A stretch of 44,273 nucleotides of DNA from the IMG/VR virus record IMGVR_UViG_3300010362_000036, positions 1 through 44,273 of that record; one strand, 5' to 3'. The translations under genes and the position numbers were made by a program. The notes under the pieces were generated by a model. That model was given only the letters and a program-made list of their open reading frames with translations. It was not told the origin of the DNA and searched no databases. This document shows positions 4,471 to 43,439 of this stretch, one piece after another (within the stretch, counting starts at the first letter, position 1; the number at the start of each line of letters is the position of its first letter). This stretch comes from a virus. Its lineage: Duplodnaviria; Caudoviricetes.

Positions 4471-6906
4471 TTAGGCTGGCAACCGGGCTTCGATGGCGAG
4501 CACGCGCCGCATCAGTTCCTGCGTGACGGCGATGTGCGCGTGGAAGAGATCTGTGATGCGCACGCCCATGAAGGCGGGGTGTCCCTCGTCGCCAGGGAAG
4601 GCATCATCCACAACGAGAGCGGCGGCGACGGCCTTCACTTGCTGGGCGTAGACACCGATGTGATCAACGTCGTCGGTCTGATCGAGATACCGATAGGAGC
4701 GGATTTCGAGTGCCGCGAGGCGATCCCACCAGTCCATGGCGGCGACGATCGTGCCCGCGTTTTTCAGCCTGGCATCCGAGAGATTGACGTTGTTCGCGGA
4801 GAAGTTCGCGAGGCCACCATTCGAGTCGATGCGGGCCTTCACCCCCGCAGTGTCTTGGCATTGGAGAAATTGCTGCGTGGCGTTGTTCGGCGCGGCAGCC
4901 GTGAACAGAGACCGGATGCCCGTCGGAGCGGCCCCGGTGCATTGGACCGTCAGGGGCCAACTGCCCGTTCCGGTAAAGCTCGAATTGATGGTGGTGACAT
5001 TGTTCGTTGGACTGATACGGAGTGCGTTCAGGGAAGCGCTGCTGTTATAGATCTCGAAAGTATCCGCGCCAATGCCGATATTCAGACCAACTTGCCATTT
5101 CACGGCGCCGCTGGCCGAGTATTGCAGCGCCACAGCCGGGTTGGCGGCGGGTGAGTGCAACAGCAACGCGAGGGCGCCTTGTGCGGACGCTTGCACGAGA
5201 CCGGTGAAGACTTGGAACAATGCAGCGTTGGTGTAGTCCGCAACACGGAGGCAGTAATTGCTGGCACTGCCGCCCGTGATATTCATTCCGTAGCCAGTGG
5301 AATCCGTGTTGGAGCCATCCAAGGCGACATCCGCCGGGATGGTTCCCTGGATGCTGACGCGCTGGTTGAACATCGCGCCGCCGCCCACGCGCAGCTTTCG
5401 GGTGGTACCGGGATCAGTGCCAATCACCACCGTGTTGTCCGGCATAAGGGACAGGAGTGGCGGGGCGAATGTGGTGCCTCCTGCGCCGATAGATCGCGCA
5501 AACTCTAATCCGCCGACGATGGTCTGCTGATACCCGATGCGCCAGTTTACTTGCGTGTTGGAGCCCGTGATGTTGAATGCCAGCGCGGAGTTGGTTGTGG
5601 GGACCTCCTCCCCCAGCGTCAATGTCGATCTCACGGACGCGCTCGGATTGACGCGCAGTGTGGCGGTTCCCCCAGGATCGGGGCCGATCACCGTCGAGCG
5701 CGAGATGAAGATCGGCCCGACCAAGCGGCGTGAGATGAAGATCGGCTGATCGATCGCCGTGCCCGCATCGTTGAACGCTTCGATCACGAAGTCGTTGCCG
5801 AGATCACCGGTGGACTCCGTGTTGCCGCTTTTCCGAATCTTCCAGCGCAACACGTTGTTCATCGTGAACCGAATAGCCTCGCCACCCACGATCGCCGCAT
5901 CGAAGGCGATCGCGCCACCGGAGGGCACCGTGATCAGACTGTTCACACGATTGATCGACAATGCCACGGCGCCGTCAGCGCCACGCGCTATGACCAGATT
6001 GTCCGACGGATCGGCCATGATATAGGCGACGGGATTCGCGCCTCGTACGAAGGCAGCGAGGGCGTTAAATGACCCCCCTGCCGCCGTGTTGACGACGCCG
6101 AGCGCCTGCCCATTGTTTTGGGCGGTCAATTGACCGCCCTGCACGGTCAGCCCAGTCGCAAACGTGTATGTGCCGGGGAACGTTCCGCTGGTGACGTTGT
6201 TCGCCGGAATCGTCGTCAGCGCGCCTGGCGTTTGCCACGTGGGAACACCACCGACGACCGTGAGCACTTGATTCGCCGTACCGATCGGGAGCTTCACCAG
6301 CGTGCTTACCGCGCTCGCATAGAGCAGGTCACCCACCGCATAGAGCGCGATGCCGGTGCCGCCCCACTGCGGGTTGATCACCGTTCCGTTCCACGTCCCG
6401 GTCGCAATCGTCCCGAGCGTCGTGATCGATCCCTGCCCGACATAGGCCGCATCGATATCCACCACGGGCGCCGACGGCGTTCCCGTAATCGCGATGCGAG
6501 CTGGTGTGCCGCTGACCGACACCACGCCACCTGGCGCTGGCGTCTGCCACGCGGGCACGCCACCGACAACGGTGAGCACCTGGCCGGTCGTGCCGACCGC
6601 GCGGCGCGCCAACACATTGGTCGCGCTCGCGTAAATGAGATCGCCGGTCGTATAGGCGGAGAGCCCGGTGCCACCCGATGTCGGGGGGACTGGTGTCGCG
6701 AAGTTCACCGTGCCGCCGACGATCAGATTCCCGCTGACCGTGACATTGCCCGGGATGTTCGACAGCGCCTGCGAAAACGTGATCTTCTTCGTCGTGCCGC
6801 GCGGCGACGCTGAGAGATCGCTAATGTCGACCATGACGAGCAGGTCGCCGACGTCTCCACCTGCGCCAACAAACGCAGGGAGATTCGCAATCGAGACAGT
6901 GGCCAT
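4471..6906 (-). CDS. Long fibre protein with C-terminal intramolecular chaperone (peptidase S74)
   Basis: Gly/Thr-rich. Two internal repeats GD(L/I)xYAS...QVLTVVGGVPxWQTP. C-terminal SDARLK...LEIRSYRY...GVYAQQV and terminal coiled coil. Confidence 0.85.
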   Translation of the reverse strand: MATVSIANLPAFVGAGGDVGDLLVMVDISDLSASPRGTTKKITFSQALSNIPGNVTVSGNLIVGGTVNFATPVPPTSGGTGLSAYTTGDLIYASATNVLARRAVGTTGQVLTVVGGVPAWQTPAPGGVVSVSGTPARIAITGTPSAPVVDIDAAYVGQGSITTLGTIATGTWNGTVINPQWGGTGIALYAVGDLLYASAVSTLVKLPIGTANQVLTVVGGVPTWQTPGALTTIPANNVTSGTFPGTYTFATGLTVQGGQLTAQNNGQALGVVNTAAGGSFNALAAFVRGANPVAYIMADPSDNLVIARGADGAVALSINRVNSLITVPSGGAIAFDAAIVGGEAIRFTMNNVLRWKIRKSGNTESTGDLGNDFVIEAFNDAGTAIDQPIFISRRLVGPIFISRSTVIGPDPGGTATLRVNPSASVRSTLTLGEEVPTTNSALAFNITGSNTQVNWRIGYQQTIVGGLEFARSIGAGGTTFAPPLLSLMPDNTVVIGTDPGTTRKLRVGGGAMFNQRVSIQGTIPADVALDGSNTDSTGYGMNITGGSASNYCLRVADYTNAALFQVFTGLVQASAQGALALLLHSPAANPAVALQYSASGAVKWQVGLNIGIGADTFEIYNSSASLNALRISPTNNVTTINSSFTGTGSWPLTVQCTGAAPTGIRSLFTAAAPNNATQQFLQCQDTAGVKARIDSNGGLANFSANNVNLSDARLKNAGTIVAAMDWWDRLAALEIRSYRYLDQTDDVDHIGVYAQQVKAVAAALVVDDAFPGDEGHPAFMGVRITDLFHAHIAVTQELMRRVLAIEARLPA

Positions 6907-7091
6907 TATGGCGATTCCACGATCAACGTGATCGGCGTTGAATCTTCCGTCGTGAGCAGAATCGGCGGCTCATCTTCGGTCGTGATGCCGGTGTCCGCTG
7001 GCGGCGGAGGCGCACCGCCCCCTGCGCGCCGCGCATACGGCCAGCTGAGCCAGACCACACGCGGGCGCACCTCGTTGGCGGCTGGGCTCAC
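6906..7091 (-). CDS. Small peptide with ITTE/LTTE motifs (possible fibre anchor)
   Basis: 61 aa, coupled on both sides; ends TGITTEDEPPILLTTEDSTPITLIVESP. Confidence 0.55.
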   Translation of the reverse strand: MSPAANEVRPRVVWLSWPYARRAGGGAPPPPADTGITTEDEPPILLTTEDSTPITLIVESP

Positions 7092-7486
7092 GCGGCGGCA
7101 CCCTTCATCGGCGACCAGTAAATGCGCCCGGTGCCGCTCGTGTACGTGATGTCGAGCGCGATCTCTAATCCCGTCGCGGGAATGAGAATGATCGAATCAG
7201 TCGTGATCGGCGCGACGTCGTAGGTCATGTCGGCGACCGCGCCGTTCAGGAAGAGTTTCAAGTACGGGATCGGTCGGAAGGTCACGTCATCGATCGCGGC
7301 TTGGGGAATGCGCGAGCGCGCTTTCACGATCGCCGACACGGAGAGCGCCCCGCGATTCACGAGGTGCACGCTGAACGTGCCCACGAGTCCGTCCGACGCA
7401 TCGCCGATCGTGTACAGGCCCGTGCCTTCGTTGGGCTTGGTCGAGAGATCGAAGACCCGACCCACCGTGCGATAGGTCGGAGGCAT
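7088..7486 (-). CDS. Beta-rich virion protein, paralog of 41663-42094
   Basis: The real start is MPPTYRTVG at 7486 (TAATG coupling). Shares YxxGDAxDG, PIPY and IPATGLxIALD(I/V)T with 41663-42094. Confidence 0.65.
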   Translation of the reverse strand: MPPTYRTVGRVFDLSTKPNEGTGLYTIGDASDGLVGTFSVHLVNRGALSVSAIVKARSRIPQAAIDDVTFRPIPYLKLFLNGAVADMTYDVAPITTDSIILIPATGLEIALDITYTSGTGRIYWSPMKGAAA

Positions 7487-7662
7487 TAGCGGACTCGCAT
7501 ATTCGCGGCGCCGGGCCACAACTGCGCGAGCAGGAAGACCACGGCGAGAATGACGACGATGACGAGCGTGGGCGTTTGCCACGGTTGCGGCATGTACATC
7601 TTCACGATCCACAGCACGAGCAGGATGATGCAGATCGCGACGACGAGCTCTAGGAGTGTCAT
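7486..7662 (-). CDS. 58-aa two-TM membrane protein, holin candidate (missed by ORF track)
   Basis: MTLLELVVAICIILLVLWIVKMYMPQPWQTPTLVIVVILAVVFLLAQLWPGAANMRVR. ATGA overlap with the portal stop and TAATG overlap with the next gene. Confidence 0.65.
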   Translation of the reverse strand: MTLLELVVAICIILLVLWIVKMYMPQPWQTPTLVIVVILAVVFLLAQLWPGAANMRVR

Positions 7663-15657: not shown

Positions 15658-15677
15658 TGGGGAACAGACTGGGGAAC
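15658..15677 (+). repeat. 20-bp direct repeat TGGGGAACAGACTGGGGAAC, copy 1
   Basis: Exact copy at 30491-30510. Confidence 0.95.
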
Positions 15678-20562: not shown

Positions 20563-21084
20563 ATGGCACAAACGCGCTATGCGTTCAAGATGGCGGGCAT
20601 GTACGAGTCGCTAGAACTCGATGCCCAGGCCGTCGGCGAAGAATTAGAGCAACTCATCGCCGACAAAAATGAGCACGTCACGCACGACGAGATCATCGCG
20701 CGCGCCCGCAAGTCAGACAGCGCGATGCACGGGGCGTTCACCTGGGACCAGGAGGTCGCTGCCGCCAAGTGGAACAAGAGAGAAGCGCGGCAACTGACAC
20801 AGCACCTCGTCGTCGCGAAAAACGGCAAGGCCACACGCACCAAAGCATTCGTCTTCGTCCATCATCCGGCGCACGATGGCAAGAAGGTACTACTCACCAC
20901 GCGCAGCGCGATGGCGAATCAAGCGACACGCCAGGAAGTCATCGAACAGGCCGTGCGCTCCCTGCAGCGGTCCCTCAATTGGTGGGGCCATGCGTATGGC
21001 GGCAATCCCGCGTTGCGGCGGCTGGCCAAGAACGTTCAGGCGCTCAAAGAGCGCGCTGAGCGCGAATTGCTGGCAGGCGTCTAA
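20563..21084 (+). CDS. Conserved phage protein of unknown function
   Basis: VTHDEIIARAR..DSAMHGAFTWDQEVAAAKW..REARQL motif; AGGAG RBS. Confidence 0.65.
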   Translation: MAQTRYAFKMAGMYESLELDAQAVGEELEQLIADKNEHVTHDEIIARARKSDSAMHGAFTWDQEVAAAKWNKREARQLTQHLVVAKNGKATRTKAFVFVHHPAHDGKKVLLTTRSAMANQATRQEVIEQAVRSLQRSLNWWGHAYGGNPALRRLAKNVQALKERAERELLAGV

Positions 21085-22013
21085 TGCACACACGCCCTCA
21101 GAAGCTCTACGACGCGGGCACGTTCGGGCACTACCTCCAAAACGATCTCAAGATTCCAGCAGGGCCCACGCGGCTACCGCTCGCCGTGCGCAACATTGCC
21201 CTGCGTCTCCAGCGTTCGGCGGAAGGCGTCGCGCCGAACTCGCCCATGCTGCCCGGCCTCGCGAAGTATCTCGGCGTGCCGCTCGACACTGTGCAGAAGT
21301 TTGCCAAAGGCGCGCCCCTCAACGAGAAATGGCTCTCGAAGATCTCGACGCAACTCGCACGGGGCACCATCCCGCGCGGCAAGAAGCTCGGCAAGGCGAT
21401 CCATGCGAAGCACGCGAGCAAGAAGAAAACGAAGGGGCGTGCGCCGGTGGAGATCCAGCCACACACGAAGCACGAGTTGACGCGCATCGCCGCCGAGAAA
21501 GGCTTCAGGCTCGGAGATCTCGCAAAGGAGCTAGGCGTGAAAGCCGGATCGCTGTGGGCCATCGCGACCGGCAAGTGTGCGCCCAGTCATCCCTTGCTTC
21601 CCGAAATTGCCAATGCGCTCGACATCCCGCTGCGGCGCCTGCAGGCGATGTGCAAGCTCCCGGGCTTATCAATCGGGCGCCCGAAGGCGAAGCGCAAAGA
21701 GAAGGTGCTGGCCGTCGTCCACGTGTCGCGCGAGCACACGCATCAGCACAACGGGAATGGTCACCCGAAGAACAACGGCCATCACCCGCGCAAGTACAAC
21801 GCGATGCGCAAGCAAGAGATCGAACTGCGCCAGGCCGCCAGGAGTATTCTCTCATCGCTCAACCTGGCGATCATGGAAGGCCAGCAATGGTCCCCACCGT
21901 TGCCGGTCGCCGCACTGCACGCCGTGATGCAAGACTACATGAACTCGAAAGGCGGGCGCGGCGGCGCTCTCGTGCTGGATCCACGGTTCGCCGAGTTCTT
22001 CGATCCGAAGTAG
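21084..22013 (+). CDS. XRE-family HTH protein (two HTH-like regions), repressor candidate
   Basis: LGDLAKELGVKAGSLWAIATG..PS..LLPEIANALDIP plus an earlier LAKYLGVPLDTV; very basic. Confidence 0.65.
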   Translation: MHTRPQKLYDAGTFGHYLQNDLKIPAGPTRLPLAVRNIALRLQRSAEGVAPNSPMLPGLAKYLGVPLDTVQKFAKGAPLNEKWLSKISTQLARGTIPRGKKLGKAIHAKHASKKKTKGRAPVEIQPHTKHELTRIAAEKGFRLGDLAKELGVKAGSLWAIATGKCAPSHPLLPEIANALDIPLRRLQAMCKLPGLSIGRPKAKRKEKVLAVVHVSREHTHQHNGNGHPKNNGHHPRKYNAMRKQEIELRQAARSILSSLNLAIMEGQQWSPPLPVAALHAVMQDYMNSKGGRGGALVLDPRFAEFFDPK

Positions 22014-25467: not shown

Positions 25468-25475
25468 CGGCACGC

Positions 25476-25511
25476 AAAACGCCCCACCGGTCGCGTCGAC
25501 GGTGGGGCGTT
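25476..25511 (-). terminator. Intrinsic terminator at the convergence of the two operons
   Basis: 12-bp stem AACGCCCCACCG/CGGTGGGGCGTT with a TTTT tail on the minus strand. Confidence 0.75.
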
Positions 25512-25589
25512 CGCCCTCAGACAAAGACTGCTGCGCTGGGGTTGGTATCTATGCAAAGAGATAACCCAGCACGATCGGCCCGAGAGCTT

Positions 25590-25769
25590 TCACGGCACTC
25601 GAAGATACGACTGCCAGAACGAGGCGGGCAAGATCCCCATGTTCTTCGCGACGACCGTCAGGTACACCGCCTCCTGGAAACTGATGCGCTGGAAGTAGCG
25701 CCCGAACGACTCCCCCGGTTCGCCCATCGGGAGCGCGCGCTTCTCTTGCACCTCGACAAAATCAATCAT
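25590..25769 (-). CDS. Hypothetical protein
   Basis: MIDFVEVQ start with ATGA coupling. Confidence 0.45.
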   Translation of the reverse strand: MIDFVEVQEKRALPMGEPGESFGRYFQRISFQEAVYLTVVAKNMGILPASFWQSYLRVP

Positions 25770-26122
25770 CGGAAGATCCGCATGTTGCCGGGCCCGACGC
25801 GCTCCGCCCAGCCGCGATCGATCGCAAACTGGTGCAGCACCTCGTCGGTGCCGATGAGATAGAGTCCACCGCATCCCTCCCACTGCAGCCGGAAGCGCAC
25901 CTGGTGCACGCTCGCGCGTCCAACCTCCGTCTTCGCTTCCCACCACACCGCACAGTTCCGCGCCGTGTTCATGTACAGGCGATCGGGAAATCCCGGCGTC
26001 TGCTGCGTCGGGCGGGCTTGCGAGAGATGCCACGACTCGAAGCCGAGCGATGCCATGAAGCGATCGCCCGCTGCCTCGACGTCTTTCTCTCGGCGCACGT
26101 CCACCCGAAACTTGCGACTCAC
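25766..26122 (-). CDS. VRR-NUC (PD-(D/E)xK) nuclease
   Basis: EKDVE...PGFPDRL...WWEAK..GR.S.HQ. GTG start at 26122. Confidence 0.85.
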   Translation of the reverse strand: MSRKFRVDVRREKDVEAAGDRFMASLGFESWHLSQARPTQQTPGFPDRLYMNTARNCAVWWEAKTEVGRASVHQVRFRLQWEGCGGLYLIGTDEVLHQFAIDRGWAERVGPGNMRIFR

Positions 26123-26430
26123 CGGTCCAGCGCCTCCTGGTGATTGCAATAGCATCCAGCGCGCACGCACAACTCTGGATGCGGGCACCCGCAGTCCGCG
26201 ACCGCCGCCGCGTCGCGCAGCGCCTTGATCGCGAGGCCCATCTCCAGTTCCAACAGCAACCGCTGCTCCCGGTCGCGCTGCCAGGCCGTGAGCGCCTCGT
26301 CGAGGATGCCCGCCCAGCGGAGCCACGAGCTCGCGTGATCGAGCTTCGCGCATGTCACGAAGTGATCGCGCAGATCGGCGAGCGCGCCCTCGACGCGATG
26401 CGTGCCGTCGTTAGTGTCGCTTAATACCAT
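26119..26430 (-). CDS. Hypothetical protein
   Basis: Coupled; Cys-rich end. Confidence 0.5.
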   Translation of the reverse strand: MVLSDTNDGTHRVEGALADLRDHFVTCAKLDHASSWLRWAGILDEALTAWQRDREQRLLLELEMGLAIKALRDAAAVADCGCPHPELCVRAGCYCNHQEALDR

Positions 26431-26608
26431 GCTTCACCGGGTCGTGCACCATGAACACGCGCTGCGGGCCCGGCACCAGCTGCGGGATCCACTCGTGCGT
26501 GAGCGGGTCTTCGACGTAGATCGTGTCGCCCTGGTCATCGACAGCAGGCTTCATCGTTTGCTGGATCTGCTCACGTGCGCCGCAGATCTGACAGATGCTC
26601 GTGCCCAT
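26411..26608 (-). CDS. Hypothetical protein
   Basis: CQIC; packed in the operon. Confidence 0.5.
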   Translation of the reverse strand: MGTSICQICGAREQIQQTMKPAVDDQGDTIYVEDPLTHEWIPQLVPGPQRVFMVHDPVKHGIKRH

Positions 26609-26810
26609 CGGTCATCATCCCGTCGAGGAGGAGCTGCGTCTGATCGAGCGGCTCCGGGTTCAGCTTTCTCCACATCTCGGCGCGCCAAAGCTCCGAGTGA
26701 CGTTGCCCGTGCAGTGCGCCGCCGCACGCACAGTGGCAGGTCGGATGTCTCGCTGTTTCACATGCGGTCGCGTTGCGCTCCAATAAGGCGCGTTGAGGGG
26801 ATCGTTTCAT
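26571..26810 (-). CDS. Cys-rich hypothetical protein
   Basis: ACETA...CHCACGGALHG motif; AGGAG RBS. Confidence 0.6.
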   Translation of the reverse strand: MKRSPQRALLERNATACETARHPTCHCACGGALHGQRHSELWRAEMWRKLNPEPLDQTQLLLDGMMTDGHEHLSDLRRT

Positions 26811-26839
26811 AGCAAGCTCCTGTACGCATCACGTGCACA

Positions 26840-27170
26840 CACCGTGGTTGAGAGTTTTTTCTCACTACCTGCCTGACTCCCGGCATTCCCGTCACAGAGG
26901 GGTCACCGCTGGGTGTGGCCACCAGTCCCTGCCTCACATCGCGCGTCCGTCGTTCACCGCCCCTTCCGCAACCGGGGAGTCGATTGGAGCTCACCGGTAT
27001 GGCGCCCTCAGTTTTGGTGTCTGCGACGTGCAGTGCCCTACCACAGCGAGGGGATGTGACGGACCAGGTCGTAGCCGTTGCCGTTGCCTGGATTTGTTTG
27101 ATGCGCCCCTCGATGCTTCCTCCCGTTGTTCGTGAGCGTGGCGCGACTTCAGGCTCACCCGGTGACGGTG
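26840..27170 (-). ncRNA. Candidate structured non-coding RNA
   Basis: ~350-nt gap in a tightly coupled operon with at least 5 local hairpins and 4 long-range complementary pairs. Strand inferred from the flanking genes. Confidence 0.45.
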
Positions 27171-27710
27171 TCAGAAACCGGGATCGGTCTCACTGAGCGA
27201 CATCGCCCATTCCCAGCTTTGCTCACTTTCGTCTTCGATCCGTCTCGCGTGCGCATGGCCGTCCAGGCCCACCCGCACGTGCAACTCCTCATCATCGTTT
27301 TCTAGGACCGGCATCGCGGCGGTGCCGTACGACCAGAGGCGACGCCGATGCGGCGCGTCCTCCGGCGGCTCAAAGAGGCGGCGCGTTTTCTCCGCCCAGA
27401 ACAGATCGCGCGCTTCCTCGGCGAGCTGCTCGCGCGTCTTGGCACGACGTGGTGGCGGCGGTGGCGGAGGTGGGGCCTGCCGCCGCCGGGCCTCCCGCAC
27501 GCGCTCCTCTTCTCGCCAGGTGCGCTCGCGCTCCGCCCAGAATGCCTTCTGTCGCGCCGCCTCTGCCGCTGCCTGGCGTTGCTCTTCCTCTTCGAGGGCG
27601 ATCCACACCGGGTGATGGGGATCGCTCGGCATGCCGCACACGAGGCAGAGCAGACCGCCGCCGAAGATGTGGTGGTAGTGGCCCATGCAGGGCCGAAGCG
27701 TGTCACTCAT
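27171..27710 (-). CDS. Hypothetical protein (Zn-finger N-terminus, charged helix, poly-Pro)
   Basis: C..HYHH...CLVC; overlaps the upstream gene. Confidence 0.55.
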   Translation of the reverse strand: MSDTLRPCMGHYHHIFGGGLLCLVCGMPSDPHHPVWIALEEEEQRQAAAEAARQKAFWAERERTWREEERVREARRRQAPPPPPPPPRRAKTREQLAEEARDLFWAEKTRRLFEPPEDAPHRRRLWSYGTAAMPVLENDDEELHVRVGLDGHAHARRIEDESEQSWEWAMSLSETDPGF

Positions 27711-27924: not shown

Positions 27925-28112
27925 TTGGGGAACCGCTGCTTGAGGATTTCCTGAATCCTCGGGTCGTCGCCGTTGACGCCCTCGGGGAAATAGCCGTCGC
28001 GCGCGAGGCGCGACCAGAAGGACGGCGGATCGTCTTCCTTCAGCGTTTCGATGTATTCGTCGGTGAGCGTGGCCCACACGTCATCGATGGACTGGCGGCG
28101 CGGATTCGTCAT
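27921..28112 (-). CDS. Hypothetical protein
   Basis: MTNPRRQ start with ATGA coupling. Confidence 0.5.
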   Translation of the reverse strand: MTNPRRQSIDDVWATLTDEYIETLKEDDPPSFWSRLARDGYFPEGVNGDDPRIQEILKQRFPK

Positions 28113-28564
28113 GAGAGTTCCAGCATCAACTGCCACCGGTGTTTGTCTTCCGTGGGATGCGTGTCGATGCGCGGTCGCGATTCACAGTCCCAGCTGCGAC
28201 CCTTCACGCGCGCCTCGGGAGACAGGCCGAGCGCGCGCAAACTCGAGCCGCTCTCGCGCGCCAGCGTGTACGTGATCAGCGAGGTATAGCCCATCGTCTG
28301 ACACACCCGCCGCGCGGCAGCGTAGAGAAACGAGCAAGCGTTCTTGGTGCCATCGGTCGCGAGGCGCGTCACCTCGGCGTGCGTACGCGCGTGGGCGCCA
28401 CGCGCAACCGTGCGTCCGACGACAATCACGCCGACGAGCGTGTCGCCCTGCATCGCGCCGAGACAGAACCGACAGCCGCGCGTCGTCCCGTGATGCCGAT
28501 GCTCCTCGCCGATGAAGCGATTCGCTTCGCGGAGCGTGACCGGGACGAGCACGAGGCGACTCAT
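28109..28564 (-). CDS. XF1762-family, Mom-like GNAT-fold protein
   Basis: LREANRFI.EEHRHH...GVIVVGR.VAR...EVTRLATDGTKNACSFLY...MGY..LITYTL..ESGSSLRA. Confidence 0.8.
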   Translation of the reverse strand: MSRLVLVPVTLREANRFIGEEHRHHGTTRGCRFCLGAMQGDTLVGVIVVGRTVARGAHARTHAEVTRLATDGTKNACSFLYAAARRVCQTMGYTSLITYTLARESGSSLRALGLSPEARVKGRSWDCESRPRIDTHPTEDKHRWQLMLELS

Positions 28565-29298
28565 CCCACGAGATCCATGTTGAACTGCGTCCCGAACGTC
28601 CGTGTCCAACGCGGCGCGCTCGCGTGGCGCTCGATGCGATCGATGAGCACCAGGCCACCCATCGTGCCCGTGAGGTGATACATCTGCCGCTCGCGGACGT
28701 GGTTCTGTGCGACGTTGCTCGAATCAGCGGAGCTAAACGGCAACTGCGAGAAGACTGTCGGGTTGAGCATGCGCAGGCCGTGGAGCTTGCACGGCGGGCG
28801 CCCCTCGGCGTCGCAGATGTGATCCATCGCCGCGCCCATGCGCTCCCACCAGCCCGGCGTGCCGATCTCCGCCCACTGGCCTGAACTGCCGAAGGCGACA
28901 CGCGGATATTCGCGACAGAGGCGCCCGAGCCGCTCTAGCGATTCGTGCAGATGCCACACCGGCACGTTCGTCAGGAGCTTGCCGCCCAGCTTCCCCCACG
29001 TCGCGAGCGCGAGCTCATTGGCCGCTTCATCGCCATCGATGACGTCGGGCAGGATGCACCAGTCGAAGCCCGGGTGCCGTTCCCACTGCTGCACGAAGTC
29101 GAGGTAGGCGTGGATGTCGAACGTCGCGCCGCGCTGCCACACCGAGTACGCGCCGTTATCGATCGCGAAGGTCTGACACACCTCGGCGGCGAGCGCGACC
29201 TGATCAGGGCGCTCGAAGGACACGAACGCATGACGGCGCGTCCACACGTCGACCGCCACCGAGAGCGGCGTGATGGGGCCCCCGTGATAGTGAATCAC
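28561..29298 (-). CDS. DpdA/TGT-like TIM-barrel base-exchange protein
   Basis: FAIDNGAYS, ILPDVIDG, VPVWH, VAFGSS, KLHGL and FSSADS match TGT-fold motifs (DSG-like, PD, PVxH, HxxG, SxDS). Confidence 0.7.
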   Translation of the reverse strand: MIHYHGGPITPLSVAVDVWTRRHAFVSFERPDQVALAAEVCQTFAIDNGAYSVWQRGATFDIHAYLDFVQQWERHPGFDWCILPDVIDGDEAANELALATWGKLGGKLLTNVPVWHLHESLERLGRLCREYPRVAFGSSGQWAEIGTPGWWERMGAAMDHICDAEGRPPCKLHGLRMLNPTVFSQLPFSSADSSNVAQNHVRERQMYHLTGTMGGLVLIDRIERHASAPRWTRTFGTQFNMDLVG

Positions 29299-30012: not shown

Positions 30013-30407
30013 GATGCCACCCCCGAGCGTTTGATCGATTGGAGGTGGAAGCCCGCTCGAATGGCGAGGCGTCTCGCGGCGCGCACGCTGAAGCCGCAGA
30101 CACCAGCGGCGATATCGAGCGAGGCGCCCTCAGAGAGGAGCTTGAAAAAGAGGCGGCGCCGGGCGAGGACCGCTGGGGAATAGACTGGGGAATGTTCCCC
30201 GACCGGGGTGCCACCCTCGACGCGGAGGTGCGACGTCGAGGGGGCGGTGCCCTGTCCTTCTAACGCAAGTTCGTACTGGGAGTTACGCTCTGCACTCGCA
30301 GCGAATTGCTGCGCCCATTGTTTGAGAGTACTGATCGCGCTGACAATGGGTGTGAAACACATTTGGCCCACCTGGCGCAACTGCTGACCCCACAACGATT
30401 TCGGCAT
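30009..30407 (-). CDS. Protein with C-terminal HTH, overlapping the attP-like region
   Basis: LLSEGASLDIAAGVCGFSVRAARRL. The only in-frame ATGs are at 30407 and 30362. Confidence 0.45.
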   Translation of the reverse strand: MPKSLWGQQLRQVGQMCFTPIVSAISTLKQWAQQFAASAERNSQYELALEGQGTAPSTSHLRVEGGTPVGEHSPVYSPAVLARRRLFFKLLSEGASLDIAAGVCGFSVRAARRLAIRAGFHLQSIKRSGVAS

Positions 30408-30437
30408 CTAACACCCCGTCTGGTAACAAGTTAGCCA

Positions 30438-30481
30438 TGTCGGATGCTGTCGGTTCCTGTCGGTTCTTGTCGGTTCCTGTC
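30438..30481 (+). repeat. Four tandem 10-bp TGTCGG(T/A)Tnn repeats
   Basis: TGTCGGATGC TGTCGGTTCC TGTCGGTTCT TGTCGGTTCC TGTC. Confidence 0.9.
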
Positions 30482-30490
30482 ACATGCATT

Positions 30491-30510
30491 TGGGGAACAG
30501 ACTGGGGAAC
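30491..30510 (+). repeat. 20-bp direct repeat TGGGGAACAGACTGGGGAAC, copy 2
   Basis: Exact copy at 15658-15677; variant at 30174-30192. Confidence 0.95.
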
Positions 30511-30553
30511 GCCGAAACGGGTCGGAGGCCAAACTGGGGAACGGCAACCCCCG

Positions 30554-31954
30554 CTAGATGGCCTTCAGCTTCGGGAGCCCTGGGTCCTCCGCCATCAGCA
30601 CGCCCTCGCCCTGATACTGCCGTGCCTTCACGTACTTGTTGAACGTCACGCGCGAGCCATCGCGATGGCCCGCCTGCTGCTGCGCGGCCCGCAGACCGCC
30701 CTCGGTGTCCAGCACCCCGCTCTCCGCCTCCTGCGTCAGGTACGAGTGCCGACCCAGATGCATCGCGTGCCCCTTCTTCCGCTTGTGCCAGAGCCCCGCG
30801 TCCTTGAGCGCCTGGTCCCACGCGCGGATGTAGTGCATGTATGACTTCGGGGCGAACGCATCATCCCAGCGCAGCGACCGCAGGTAGGGCTCGATGTACA
30901 GATCCCACGCCCAGTCGCGCTTGACCTCGCACCACCGGTTGCGCGGCGACGTGCCCTTCCGCTTGGCCGTGAGCGACGCCTTCGGGCCGCGCGCGAAGAA
31001 CCACCGCGTGAACCGGTGCGTCTTCGGGTCGACCTTGAAATCCTTCTTGAAGAGCACCGGATCCTTGAGCTTCTTGCCGTCCGGTCCCGTCACGCTGCCG
31101 GTGTGGCGAATGGCGCTGAACTCGACGCACGCCGCGTGAATGAGCGCGAACACCGCGCGCTCGGCGGGCCCCTTGCCCTTGCTCACATGGCGCATCTGCT
31201 CTTCCTCGGTGAGCGCATCGCCCGCCACGAGGTCGTTCGCCTGGGCGTACATCACGTCGGGGTCGAGCGTCTTGATCGTCACCGTGAGCACGATGTTCGT
31301 GCTGAGGAGCTTCTTGCCGATGAGGAACTCTGCGAACGTCGAGAGCCCGCCGCGATGATTCCGGCGCGTGCCGAAGGAGCAGCCCTCCTCGGGCAGCAAC
31401 TCGTTCAAGTGCCTGCGCAGGTTCTCGACCGTGAAGTCATGCGTCGTCTTCGCGCCGGTCGTCTTGATGAAGCGCGCGAGCATGCGCTTGTTGAGGAGGC
31501 GCGTGTGGTACGCGGGACTCGACTCCGGCGCCGAGCCATCCCATTCCTCGGCGAGCTGGGCGAGCGGGCGCGCGTCGCGTGTGTTGAGCACGTGCTGCAA
31601 TCGGTCGTCCCACGAGGCGTTCTTCGTGTGGCCCGGGTTCATCGGATCCGGCACCTTCTCGCACTCCGCCATCTTCGCCTCGAAGCGTTCGACCGTCATC
31701 GTCTTCGTCACGAACATCTCGGCAAGCAAGCCGCGCACATCGCGCGTCGGATGCGCAACGAGCGCGAACAGCTTTTCGAGTTCCAGCAAGCGGCGCGTGC
31801 CCAGCTTGGTCTTCTTCTCTTCGGCAGCGGTACAGCCGAGCCGCCCGAACATGCGATTGCCATTGTCGCTGACGAGCCCGATCGATGCGCCCTCGGCGAC
31901 GGTGAACACGACGTACAGACTGCCTGCTGCGCCTTTCGGTGATGAGAGTTTCAC
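30554..31954 (-). CDS. int: Tyrosine recombinase/integrase with atypical box I
   Basis: Core-binding region (T..N.R..LS.F..FL), HLGRHS (HxxR), AGH and FNKY (Tyr). GTG start at 31954 with GGGGGAG RBS. Confidence 0.8.
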   Translation of the reverse strand: MKLSSPKGAAGSLYVVFTVAEGASIGLVSDNGNRMFGRLGCTAAEEKKTKLGTRRLLELEKLFALVAHPTRDVRGLLAEMFVTKTMTVERFEAKMAECEKVPDPMNPGHTKNASWDDRLQHVLNTRDARPLAQLAEEWDGSAPESSPAYHTRLLNKRMLARFIKTTGAKTTHDFTVENLRRHLNELLPEEGCSFGTRRNHRGGLSTFAEFLIGKKLLSTNIVLTVTIKTLDPDVMYAQANDLVAGDALTEEEQMRHVSKGKGPAERAVFALIHAACVEFSAIRHTGSVTGPDGKKLKDPVLFKKDFKVDPKTHRFTRWFFARGPKASLTAKRKGTSPRNRWCEVKRDWAWDLYIEPYLRSLRWDDAFAPKSYMHYIRAWDQALKDAGLWHKRKKGHAMHLGRHSYLTQEAESGVLDTEGGLRAAQQQAGHRDGSRVTFNKYVKARQYQGEGVLMAEDPGLPKLKAI

Positions 31955-31981
31955 GATAGATCTCCCCCTGGTTGAATAAAC

Positions 31982-32024
31982 GGACGAGCTAAGATCCAGT
32001 AAATGAACTACTTGGAACTCGTCC
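31982..32024 (-). promoter_or_regulatory. Long imperfect hairpin between xis and int
   Basis: Nested pairs GGACGAG/CTCGTCC, TCCA/TGGA and GTA/TAC. Confidence 0.45.
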
Positions 32025-32036
32025 TGACAAGGGGTT

Positions 32037-32312
32037 TCAGTCAGCCGCGCCCGCGCCTCCAGCGAGCAGGTCATCAAGCTCATTCAGGTCATAGCGATAG
32101 GCGCCTTTGTCCCCGTGCCGGAGGTGCCCGGCTACGCGGACCAGGGTGGAGCGGTGCATGTGGCAGTAGTCTGCCGCCTCCGCCGTGGTCGCCCAGCGCC
32201 GGGGCCGCTCAGGATGTGGCCGCTGACCCAGCGCGGTCACGTTCGGGTCAAGCACGAATATCTGCGCCTTCTTGGCGCGGCTCTTAGAACGGAAGGTCGC
32301 TTTGGTCTTCAT
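32037..32312 (-). CDS. xis: Excisionase-like HTH protein
   Basis: WATTAEAADYCHMHRSTL...YRYDLNELDDLL, immediately upstream of int. Confidence 0.65.
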   Translation of the reverse strand: MKTKATFRSKSRAKKAQIFVLDPNVTALGQRPHPERPRRWATTAEAADYCHMHRSTLVRVAGHLRHGDKGAYRYDLNELDDLLAGGAGAAD

Positions 32313-40920: not shown

Positions 40921-40932
40921 GAGCGTTCTCTA
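40914..40932. repeat. 19-bp direct repeat GAGCCATGAGCGTTCTCTA, copy A
   Basis: Exact copy at 42088-42106; 15-bp core also at 41648-41662. Confidence 0.9.
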
Positions 40933-41652
40933 GATATAGAGTGCTCGTCCTGATCCACCCGGTCCTGACCCGGCGGGTCCACTGCGAATGCGGACGAGTG
41001 AACCCACATCCTGCGAGAACACCAGAATGGCCATAGCCCCGGCCTGCCCGGCGGGGTCATCCACCACGCACTTGATGACGGTGTTGTAGTTCGCGAATTG
41101 GGCGATGAAGCGCCCGCTGATGCCACCGGCATTCACGCTGAGTCCCTGCGACAGCGCATTGGTATTGTTGATTTGCAGCGTGGCGATCTCCGCCGTGTTG
41201 TCTTGCAATGCCATGGATTTCGCGCGGATGGAGCCACCGACGCGGAAGATCTCGCCCGCGTTCGCCGGGTCCGCCCCGACGACGAGCCCGGCGAACGTGT
41301 GCACCACCCCGTTCGCACTCTCGATGTACATCGGCGAGGTGCCCGTGGTGAAATCGCGGAAATTCAGATTCGCGGTGCCGCTCACGAGCATAAGGCCCCA
41401 CTTGGGCGTTCCGGCATTGTCCACCACGATGAGGACCGGACTGTCATCCGTGTTGGGCGATCCCACCGTGAGCGTGCCGTTCACATCCAGATTCCCGCTG
41501 ATCGCGTTGATGGTCATCTGGTTGAACGTGACCTTCTTCGTCGTGCCTTGCGGCGATTCGGACGTATCACTGATGTCGACCATCACCAGGAGGTCGAACG
41601 GCGCGTTGGTTCCGACGAGCGCTGGAAGATTGGCAATCGAGACATCGGCCAT
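40930..41652 (-). CDS. Short fibre, paralog of the N-terminus of 4471-6906
   Basis: MADVSIANLPALVG..DLLVMVDISD.S.SP.GTTKK.TF matches MATVSIANLPAFVG..DLLVMVDISD.S.SP.GTTKKITF. Confidence 0.75.
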   Translation of the reverse strand: MADVSIANLPALVGTNAPFDLLVMVDISDTSESPQGTTKKVTFNQMTINAISGNLDVNGTLTVGSPNTDDSPVLIVVDNAGTPKWGLMLVSGTANLNFRDFTTGTSPMYIESANGVVHTFAGLVVGADPANAGEIFRVGGSIRAKSMALQDNTAEIATLQINNTNALSQGLSVNAGGISGRFIAQFANYNTVIKCVVDDPAGQAGAMAILVFSQDVGSLVRIRSGPAGSGPGGSGRALYI

Positions 41653-41662
41653 GAGCGTTCTC

Positions 41663-42094
41663 CTATGTCGTAATCGCCTGGCCCTCGACGGGCGTCCAGA
41701 ACACCCACGCATCGCCTGCGACGGCGGTGACATCGAGCGCGATCGCGAGGCCGGTCGCCGGGATCTCGATGATGCACGTCCCGGTCAGTGGCGCAGAGGA
41801 CCATACGGGTGGGGAGACGGCGGCACCCGCGTTGTTCAGCTGCACATACGGAATCGGCAGGAACGGCATCGGCGGCACGGGCATGGGCGGCGTGACTGGC
41901 TGGGCCGCCTCTGGGTTCCGCGCGCGCGCGAGCACCGACATGCTGCCTGTGAATCCCGCCTGCGCCCACACACACAGCGTGATGGTCGAGATCTTCCCAT
42001 CATGCGCGTCCCCCAGGATGTAGGTGTTGATTCCCTCGCCCGGCGCGGGCGAGATATGGAACACCTTGCCCTGGTCGCGATAGACAAGAGCCAT
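41663..42094 (-). CDS. Beta-rich virion protein, paralog of 7088-7486
   Basis: Shared motifs as listed for 7088-7486. Confidence 0.65.
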   Translation of the reverse strand: MALVYRDQGKVFHISPAPGEGINTYILGDAHDGKISTITLCVWAQAGFTGSMSVLARARNPEAAQPVTPPMPVPPMPFLPIPYVQLNNAGAAVSPPVWSSAPLTGTCIIEIPATGLAIALDVTAVAGDAWVFWTPVEGQAITT

Positions 42095-42106
42095 GAGCGT
42101 TCTCTA
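42088..42106. repeat. 19-bp direct repeat, copy B
   Basis: Identical to 40914-40932. Confidence 0.9.
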
Positions 42107-42766
42107 TATGCTTGGAAGGAAAGCGACGAAGCGGAACGCGGTGTCCGGCATCCAACTCGTGAGCGGCGACATCGCACCGCCCGAGCGGAACTGCGTCCGG
42201 TAGACGAGCATCCAGCGCGAGAATTCGCGCCCCCACTCCTCGGTCATCTGCATCGCGAGATCCGGGTGGAGATTCCCGGCCTGCGCGAAGGCCTTCACGG
42301 CGTAGATCGTGATTAGCTCGCGTGCCATCTCTGGCATGAGCACCGGCTGCATCGATGCGCTGATCTCGGGCGGCGGGACGACGCCGCGCCAGTAGAGCGG
42401 ATACGGCAAGCTCCGATTGTTGGGAATGCGTATTTGCGTTCCCTCATTCAGATAGTCCCATCCCTCATTGAGCGGGAAGTCGGGAATATCTTCGAGCCGC
42501 CGGTAGATCCCCGCTTTGCCCATCGGGAAGAGCGGATAGCCGTTCGCGTCCGTGCCGAAGTTGAACGTCATGCCGCCGTCGGTCGTGACCATCTGCATCG
42601 GCGGCTGGACGAGCACTTCGGGCTGTCGCGCGAGAATCTCGCCCACGACCTTGGCCTGCCCCTCGGAGAGGTAGGTGTACTTCGTCGCGGGCGTGATGGC
42701 GTCCGCATCTGGTCGACCGGCGTAGCGATTGAACTGGTCGAGCAGGTACGCGCTATCCCACAGCAA
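42104..42766 (-). CDS. Head-tail adaptor (P22 gp4-like)
   Basis: YLSEGQ..V...L...PE helix pattern and C-terminal PEMARELITIYAV. Probable TTG start at 42766. Confidence 0.6.
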   Translation of the reverse strand: MLWDSAYLLDQFNRYAGRPDADAITPATKYTYLSEGQAKVVGEILARQPEVLVQPPMQMVTTDGGMTFNFGTDANGYPLFPMGKAGIYRRLEDIPDFPLNEGWDYLNEGTQIRIPNNRSLPYPLYWRGVVPPPEISASMQPVLMPEMARELITIYAVKAFAQAGNLHPDLAMQMTEEWGREFSRWMLVYRTQFRSGGAMSPLTSWMPDTAFRFVAFLPSI

Positions 42767-43439
42767 CGGACTTGCGTCCTGGGCGCGGCGGCGGAGCCGG
42801 TGGCAGATCGGCCTCGTCTTCGGCCAGGATCTTCGTCCGATTGATGAGCTGCTCGATCGGGATCTCGACCGCGCGACCGATGCGCAGGTCGCCACTGTAC
42901 AGCAGGCGCTCGATGTATTCGTTCTTCTCGTCGGTGAAGCCCAAGAGCCATTGATCTCCGGCGAGCGCGGCCTCGGCGATACGCGGCGTGCGCGGCGGCT
43001 GCCCGACGATCGCCTTGAGTTTCCAGGTGATCGCATCCCCGTGATCGGGGATCGGCAGGTTGAGCACAGCGGCCTCCCCGGCGGCGCGCTGGTAGTACTC
43101 ATCCCACGCCTGGCGATAGTCGGTGATCATGCGCTCATACATGATCGTGAAGCGATTCGTCTGCAGCGTGCCCATCGACATCTGCATGTATTTCGCTTCC
43201 GGGATCCACGGCGCCGTCCAGCCGCCATAGGGAATGAGCTCACCGACCGGCATCGGCAGCGCCGCGCCATCGGCGGGACGCTCGGTGACGCACCACCACG
43301 GGCGCCCGTCGGGGAACTTCGTCGGGTGCCGGTGCTGATCGAAGAAGAGACCGAGTCCACGCTGTTTGTTTTGATTCCAGCCTTCGACGGGCGGCTGAAA
43401 GCGGACCCCTTTGGGGCCTGGCATTTCGAGCGGGGGCAT
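42753..43439 (-). CDS. Hypothetical protein
   Basis: 228 aa between the head and adaptor genes. Confidence 0.6.
   Translation of the reverse strand: MPPLEMPGPKGVRFQPPVEGWNQNKQRGLGLFFDQHRHPTKFPDGRPWWCVTERPADGAALPMPVGELIPYGGWTAPWIPEAKYMQMSMGTLQTNRFTIMYERMITDYRQAWDEYYQRAAGEAAVLNLPIPDHGDAITWKLKAIVGQPPRTPRIAEAALAGDQWLLGFTDEKNEYIERLLYSGDLRIGRAVEIPIEQLINRTKILAEDEADLPPAPPPRPGRKSVAVG

Follow-up and report, generated by a model that had tools for sequence, protein, structure and literature searches.

Gene content of the window and layout of the minus-strand operon

The DNA analysed here (the window), 44,273 bases in length, is a linear virus record whose sequence was found almost wholly in one soil run. 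Library scans identified a P22-like portal, terminase subunits, an endolysin, Erf, an excisionase-like HTH protein, and tgt-like and Mom-like genes. A terminase search returned two close relatives at about 70% identity, G001 and G002; G001 is a 17-kb fragment without the region studied below, and G002 is incomplete, without part of its own early region. The window ends inside the gene after the capsid gene and, on the other side, just before the start of the following gene of G002, with a relocated endolysin set aside. Because both ends therefore fall in a junction that is close together in G002, and because a second assembly of the phage measures 44,464 bp (191 bases more than the window), the window is a nearly complete genome of a temperate-type phage; a separate completeness estimate was 46%.

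Several features outside the main locus were recorded. The tail-fibre-like genes at 4471-7612 and 40930-43102 (also L256) have duplicated N-terminal segments that match each other and several places in G002, possibly through fibre shuffling. A conserved stretch at 7484-7662 was dropped as a non-coding candidate, being an uncalled 58-codon membrane-protein gene that overlaps the portal stop, with 82–83% identity in G001 and G002; we read its product as one that may be holin-like. Between two converging operons, a strong hairpin at 25475-25515 (local z of -5.95 in that stretch) is likely a two-way terminator.

In the minus-strand operon, 13 of the 15 gene junctions overlap or abut, and the other two are gaps. 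The gap under study spans 26811-27170 (360 nt), and the second, att-like and at least 146 nt long, follows the integrase; an earlier note on this DNA, which had called the 360-nt gap the only big one, was thus nearly right. The integrase-like gene (30554-32083, minus strand; weak integrase matches) heads a region with attP-like tandem and direct repeats (30172-30553, minus strand), comprising tandem TTCCCCAG repeats on both sides together with several direct repeats that resemble GACAGGAACC. An exact copy of a 20-bp tandem arm-like site is present, with unchanged orientation, at 15658-15677 between terS and the early operon; this copy may be a second site for recombination or regulation. In G002, a tRNA-Asn-like sequence lies on the minus strand within the att region (L205, G002:C1:31625-31696), which offers a handle on the host. 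At 28109-29298, a tgt-like gene (phrog_887, E 9e-66) lies next to a Mom-like gene (phrog_1384, XF1762 family); the pair, which is missing from the same slot in G002, suggests two neighbouring DNA-modification activities.

All genes flanking the gap lie on the minus strand. Directly upstream is a 179-aa orphan gene (27171-27710), in place of which G002 has an unrelated 78-aa ORF. The first gene downstream (26571-26810) encodes a 79-aa CxCxC-type phage protein and is absent at this place in G002. It is followed by a gene for a 65-aa protein (26411-26608), the homolog of which (45% identity, E 1e-16) directly follows the conserved element in G002, and by a gene for a 118-aa nuclease-like protein (25766-26122) that is 49% identical to the G002 copy. 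The latter had no library match in the PHROGs or NCBIfam scans, and from its motif we take it to be VRR-NUC/resolvase-like. The 79-aa family comprises 133 proteins at E ≤ 0.001, itself included, and is widespread and unannotated (loci L082-L198), with a length of about 70–80 aa and the motif C-E-x-A...C-x-C-x-C-x-G...H-G. No Pfam or PHROG family matched it, and it is probably metal-binding.

The gap is non-coding and folds no better than shuffled sequence

The earlier note had proposed that 26840-27170 holds a large structured RNA with two crossing long-range pairings, possibly a novel ribozyme, an antiterminator or a replication primer RNA. All 18 short motifs that it listed were found where it had placed them, with the correction that its 'TCTCA-ACC' actually reads TCTCACTACC.

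All ORFs over the gap had negative codon scores (-0.27 to -0.52, using a model trained on the phage's own genome), compared with -0.04 to +0.55 for the neighbouring genes and -0.23 for the shuffled gap. Of 2000 shuffles, 593 equalled the best coding-like segment, and the score of the longest open frame resembled that of shuffled DNA. A 138-codon open frame on the minus strand was rejected, as such a frame arose in 804 of 5000 shuffles and no relatives of it were found; the overlap of its CTG start with the upstream stop is likely due to chance. The differences between the window and G002 showed no third-position excess in any of 12 frame pairs (p ≥ 0.23). The overlapping ORFs hence carry no conserved protein-coding signature, either in the window or in the comparison with G002, and the gap is non-coding.

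Comparison of the folding energy with shuffled sequences, a check that the earlier note had suggested, did not support its structure, which at this stage failed the first refuting condition set in that note: z was -0.42 on the plus and +0.71 on the minus strand for the whole gap, and the best value in sliding windows (54 per strand) was -2.01. The best local fold within the gap (z of -2.45) was weaker than those of 9 of 12 control stretches, and the G002 copy also folded no better than its own shuffles. Nine perfect helices of at least 7 bp were present in the gap against 3.6 in shuffles, a number reached by 3 of 300 shuffles and by 90 of 366 windows of the genome. Pairings taken from the single sequence are barely above chance.

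The covariance models of Rfam 15, likewise suggested as a check, gave no match at the gathering threshold (best E of 9.2 for the window and 0.56 for G002), and the element described below belongs to no Rfam 15 family, be it of ribozymes, riboswitches, C4-type RNAs or large orphan RNAs. A scan of the gap for a sigma-70-type promoter and an intrinsic terminator found neither. Two further readings of the gap were set aside. As an attP site it was rejected, since the att-like repeats sit at 30172-30553. An array of TCAC/GTGA repeats (11 copies) was reached by 3 of 2000 shuffles, and by 544 of 2000 after allowing for all 4-mers; it was dropped as the main reading because of the homolog with compensatory changes that is described next.

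A conserved element shared with a second phage

The gap matched G002 in blastn with 76% identity over 257 nt (E 1.2e-40), and a second piece matched 26858-26895. Conservation between the two phages extends from 26849 to 27181. Within it, 26880-27181 (minus strand, inferred) forms the structured non-coding core, which is likely an RNA of some 300 nt and shares 11 nt with the end of the 179-aa ORF; 202 of 266 aligned bases are identical (76%), and the alignment has four 1-nt indels. The core thus departs from the extent of 26840-27170 given in the earlier note, and its likelier strand is the minus strand. A variable stretch (26895-26928), which in G002 is shorter by 21 nt, contains the left arms of two of the long-range helices of the earlier note.

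This conservation does not reflect mere close kinship, since only 105 of 204 fourfold-degenerate sites of TerL are identical between the two phages (51%) and the element is the best-conserved piece between integrase and nuclease, with the nuclease gene next at 70%. The genes abutting it differ: upstream G002 has the 78-aa ORF and directly downstream the 65-aa homolog. As judged from this comparison, the element is kept under selection in the second phage. The analysis of conservation and covariation draws on two independent sequences, the window and G002.

Outside the core lies an equally spaced conserved block (26849-26876; TGAGA-N8-TCACT-N5-CCTGA on the plus strand). Its palindrome TGA(G/C)A-N6-T(G/C)TCA is the sole match at up to one mismatch in the window and in G002. 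The TGAGA stem that the earlier note had drawn here has one of its five pairs broken and the rest kept in G002. With a hairpin pair broken by this change, a DNA site (an operator or promoter) is a likelier reading of the block than a hairpin.

Read coverage over the locus was uneven. In the contigs of run X1, depth was 3.5 at 26782-26979, with a break (dip at 26782-26976), and about 9 elsewhere; run X2, from a different study, contained a single 166-nt contig at depth 2 that is identical to 26814-26979.

Compensatory changes support a fold with two pseudoknots

Five helices had pair probabilities of at least 0.89 in a computation made before the homolog was known, and together they hold 29 pairs. 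In G002, four of these pairs differ at both positions without any loss of pairing, while two have a single change. A random double change stays paired in 390 of 1536 cases (0.254), so that four of four corresponds to p ~0.004, and at 24% divergence single and double changes are expected at about 6:1 (both by our own arithmetic). The RNAalifold consensus energy was reached by 2 of 200 column shuffles on the minus strand and 5 of 200 on the plus strand, and the count of compensatory pairs by 9 and 8 of 200, respectively. The full minus-strand model of 65 pairs has five compensatory and two consistent changes and one unpaired cell among 126, four cells of P3 being gaps; a sixth double-changed pair still pairs only after a gap shift. 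Its control gave 12 of 500, but the structure was fitted to these same two rows. Covariation that keeps helices, the mark of a structured non-coding RNA, is thus seen with the single homolog G002, at the depth of two sequences, which is below the standard of a family analysis. In our model, the element is probably a closed multi-helix fold with two crossing pairings.

Read along the minus strand, the predicted fold is closed by P1, in which 27169-27181 pairs with 26880-26894 through 12 pairs, three of them G-U; all 12 are invariant, and invariance is neutral on pairing. P2 (27159-27168) is a 3-bp hairpin. The P3 hairpin (27132-27158) contains the GTGAGC/GCTCAC stem of the earlier note, which was partly kept (1–2 compensatory changes, with indels); with the gap moved, P3 shows one compensatory change and one mismatch in G002, besides indels, and it is stronger on the plus strand via G-U pairs. 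The loop of P3 bears the 5' strand of PK1 (27141-27147), which would pair with 26938-26944 across P3 to form the first pseudoknot. PK1 was absent from the earlier list, and all seven of its pairs are kept on the minus strand, with one compensatory and two consistent G-U changes.

P4 (27043-27116, with 27107-27116 pairing with 27043-27052) encloses an A-rich linker, P5 and the 5' strand of PK2, and has two compensatory changes and one mismatch, which is in the window. The P5 hairpin (27064-27091), built on the CCAGG/CCTGG stem, keeps five of five pairs with one compensatory change, as does P9 (26971-26998), which is built on ACCGG/CCGGT and bears a variable loop; both of these local stems of the earlier note were thus upheld. 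PK2 would form the second pseudoknot, by pairing 27058-27063 with 26946-26951 across P4. Its six pairs are all invariant, with a pair probability of 0.98 on the minus strand, and it has invariant rival partners at 26889-26895 and in the loop 27025-27028, which leaves PK2 unproven. The intervening region (26955-27033) forms the invariant helices P6 (a hairpin at 27021-27033), P7 and P8. PK1 and PK2 have neighbouring 3' strands, so that the two helices could stack.

An alternative helix, A1, would pair 27160-27165 with 26991-26996 on the minus strand and so exclude P2 and most of P9. All six of its pairs are kept, with two compensatory changes. A total of 15 helices, A1 among them, were tested, and chance double changes also occur in other weak helices; the comparison hints that A1 competes with P2 and P9 as a switch, with chance as a possible explanation.

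The proposal of a large structured RNA with two crossing long-range pairings thus holds in kind, through one homolog with compensatory changes, and the helices named for it mostly do not. Among the four long-range helices, only GTCCGTC/GACGGAC was kept cleanly (7/7, invariant), and it survives as PK2. TCACATC 26934 with GATGTGA 27053 and GTCACCG 26902 with CGGTGAC 27160 are not kept in G002, and neither is the local stem CCCTC 27005. The pairing of GAGGGG 26897 with CCCCTC 27106 is kept on the plus strand only, in a variable, poorly aligned stretch, and CCCCTC 27106 pairs better with 27047-53. The helix set was also in part mutually incompatible, since two helices at 27053-64 share two bases and GAGGG 27048 was given two partners.

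The likely strand of the putative RNA

We lean slightly towards the minus strand as the strand of the RNA. This is the strand of the operon, and on it P1 is longer, PK1 is complete through G-U pairs, the linkers are A-rich, and the constrained energies are lower in both sets that contain P1 and PK1. The plus strand has extra G-U pairs in P3 and inside P4/P5, lower single-sequence minima, and the fixed-spacing block 26849-26876 just upstream. Consensus energies were -69.6 on the minus and -71.0 on the plus strand.

Searches for further copies

Searches based on the neighbouring proteins gave no third copy, including 80 tgt-like loci that were checked. None of the 79-aa-family loci, 99 viral and 18 from metagenomes, carried the element, apart from L181, which is the window's own sequence. 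In whole virus records for 50 of the 99 loci, only three matches of 17–20 nt were seen. An exact 19-mer search of viral contigs gave no further homolog. A two-block pattern returned 39 loci in viral contigs, of which only G002 was real, and none in genome contigs; a pattern search for the 65-aa gene returned G002 only. A capsid search of genome contigs yielded no further copy, and the element model R1, run on 50 sources and four records, found no third copy. The family is therefore rare in the searched collections, or too divergent for exact patterns.

No description of the element was found in a literature search. PMC10690425 lists candidates of 29–151 nt only, and six short motifs of the element were absent from the three of its supplementary files that were compared; a sub-domain could be present elsewhere in its supplements. 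On the sequence comparison, the element is a real conserved non-coding element of a new sequence class, and it is probably pseudoknotted. It is rare to find a new class of large pseudoknotted RNA, and the one described here is unmatched in Rfam 15.

A possible role at the phage replication origin

No family of helicases, primases, polymerases or initiators was found in PHROGs (72 + 31 sequences), Pfam (57 + 38) or NCBIfam (35); these five library scans took hand-picked ORFs, and orphan ORFs remain. A Walker A motif occurred in 3 of 324 ORFs, namely TerL and two others. The sole capsid relative in the annotated phage set, MW202627.1 (28% identity), has the gene order RecT, integrase, replicative helicase, RusA, terminase and P22-like portal; its recombinase-integrase...RusA...terminase-portal arrangement is shared with the phage studied here. 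The element lies between the integrase and the resolvase-like nuclease, where MW202627.1 carries its replicative helicase, and the statement in the earlier note that phages of this type usually have replication genes at this place is borne out by this distant relative. In both the window and G002, this slot contains no helicase-type gene and the element is its most conserved content; in G002, it holds only ORFs of at most 200 aa besides the element.

Based on the lack of a recognised replication gene, the position in this slot, and the precedents of ColE1 and of mycobacteriophages without Rep, we tentatively propose that the element may be a primer or activator RNA at the phage replication origin, replacing a replication protein. 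The support is circumstantial, and we give this reading, the likeliest of those considered, something short of an even chance. Among the functions suggested in the earlier note, primer RNA is the one that gained such support; nothing indicates a ribozyme, and an antiterminator or switch function is a less likely alternative, taken up below. According to the proposed mechanism, transcription of the minus-strand operon through the gap would yield an RNA that folds into the two-pseudoknot shape, part of which would stay hybridised to its template as an R-loop. Host enzymes, either RNase H with DNA polymerase I or those of a restart primosome, would then begin leading-strand synthesis from the element RNA in the manner of ColE1 RNA II, with helix A1 and the conserved DNA block 26849-26876 as possible control points.

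Several observations do not fit an origin readily. The cumulative GC skew shows no turn at 27 kb, and the gap gave no match to a sigma-70-type promoter. No G-run common to both copies was found on the minus strand; the plus strand has a shared GGGG near 26899, which has no counterpart near the 3' end. The 5' and 3' ends paired in P1 seem to fit a free processed RNA better than a primer with its 3' end on DNA. Both phages carry integrases, and the RNA origins of mycobacteriophages act in plasmid prophages. Phage initiators are often too divergent for detection, and the 309-aa HTH protein encoded at 21084-22013, or another orphan, could be the initiator; in addition, the early region of G002 is in part missing. 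A bolder version of the origin reading, to which we give a somewhat lower chance, is that a new class of double-pseudoknot switchable RNA, unrelated to ColE1, replaces the whole replication-gene module in an integrating soil podovirus family, so that lytic replication would proceed from the folded primer RNA and host enzymes alone.

The element might instead be a stable trans-acting RNA that is cut from the operon transcript, with its ends held by P1, and acts as a decoy or scaffold for a protein of the host or the phage. The 12 invariant end-to-end pairs and the many invariant unpaired bases would suit such a role, as would the independence of the element from the genes that abut it and the predominance of A among the unpaired bases on the minus strand (54 A vs 22 U). 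This reading leaves the missing replication module unexplained and comes with no named candidate for a binding partner, and the conservation with fixed spacing, which continues past P1 for about 30 nt, suggests that the element acts at its own place in the DNA; we rate the trans-acting reading as unlikely, though still a serious contender.

We give rather less credence to a cis-acting switch (an attenuator, antiterminator or riboswitch-like leader) that governs read-through into the 65-aa gene and the nuclease. The element is upstream of these two genes in both phages, and A1 competes with P2 and P9, with compensatory changes in both A1 and P9. However, the gap contains no intrinsic terminator, the next gene differs between the window and G002, and the 79-aa family does without such a leader: by our count, 77 of the 99 motif-matched loci have an upstream ORF that overlaps or lies within 10 nt, and none of the loci matches the element.

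It is improbable that the signal is a folded single-stranded DNA (an origin, primosome or recombination site) and not an RNA. Watson-Crick covariation is blind to RNA versus DNA and to the strand, and both strands fold about equally well. Yet conserved or consistent G-U pairs are present in P1, PK1 and P4, the fold contains two pseudoknots, and the element lies inside a transcribed operon; G-U pairs and pseudoknots are more usual in RNA than in DNA.

We have very little confidence in a self-cleaving or splicing RNA: P4 crossed by PK2 has the strand order of the P3/P7 knot of group I introns, but neither copy matched an Rfam ribozyme or intron at E ≤ 10 and no shared gene is interrupted. Equally hard to credit are a short leader peptide (ORF 26991-27158; 62 codons in G002), for which both copies do have a same-frame ORF over part of the 5' half but which has a codon score of -0.48 and lacks the third-position excess, and functionless DNA recently swapped between phages, which the mosaic nature of phage genomes would allow but which does not account for changes that arrive as compensatory pairs and not randomly.

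Many small phages have no recognisable replication genes. If the element is an origin RNA, 300 bases would offer a concrete, clonable answer to these missing genes, and RNA-primed replication, so far a matter of plasmids and plasmid prophages, would extend to integrating phages. The element could then also provide an uncultured soil host with a compact origin that needs no protein. Should it have another function, the element would still be a new phage RNA with a testable fold.

Comparison with known RNA systems

The element resembles tmRNA in its similar length, paired ends, pseudoknots and A-rich single strand; ARAGORN detected no tmRNA in either copy at a relaxed score, and the copies share no tag frame. 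The large ornate phage RNAs GOLLD and ROOL exceed the element in size. They share with it the character of multi-helix, pseudoknotted phage non-coding RNAs without a known partner (bioRxiv 2024.12.08.627333 / PMC12286853), whereas the element has no Rfam match, is shorter and has no tRNA genes nearby.

ColE1 has dedicated promoters for its primer and for an overlapping antisense RNA. In ColE1, a G-rich RNA segment pairs with a C-rich template near the origin; the element departs from this feature in having no G-run common to both copies on the minus strand. RNA-primed replication without Rep is established for ColE1, and the element is like RNA II/RNA I in being a long folded non-coding RNA with alternative pairings, no recognisable Rep and foldability on both strands (PMC8683028). 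It is shorter, at about 300 nt versus about 550 for RNA II, and is placed inside the operon of an integrase-carrying phage, where a promoter, an RNA I and a shared G-run were not found. No homology to RNA II/RNA I was detected by Rfam or plasmid blastn; against 72,556 plasmids, the element had no significant match, and three fragments of 12–14% appeared at E 1.

A blastn search of 50,697 phage records gave no match to the element, a result that covers the mycobacteriophage origins in so far as their phages are among those records. According to PMC7157519, the mycobacteriophage RNA origins lie beside parABS, replace the integrase, serve plasmid prophages only and are dispensable for lytic growth; the two phages compared here instead have an integrase-like gene and att-like sites, with no ParA/ParB match. 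The Rep-less prophages of cluster A mycobacteriophages nevertheless need a non-coding RNA region, for which an RNA-based origin was proposed with deletion and cloning support (PMC7157519). This system resembles the element described here in comprising a few hundred non-coding bases of a phage, in occurring where repA is absent, and in its place at an integration/partition locus.
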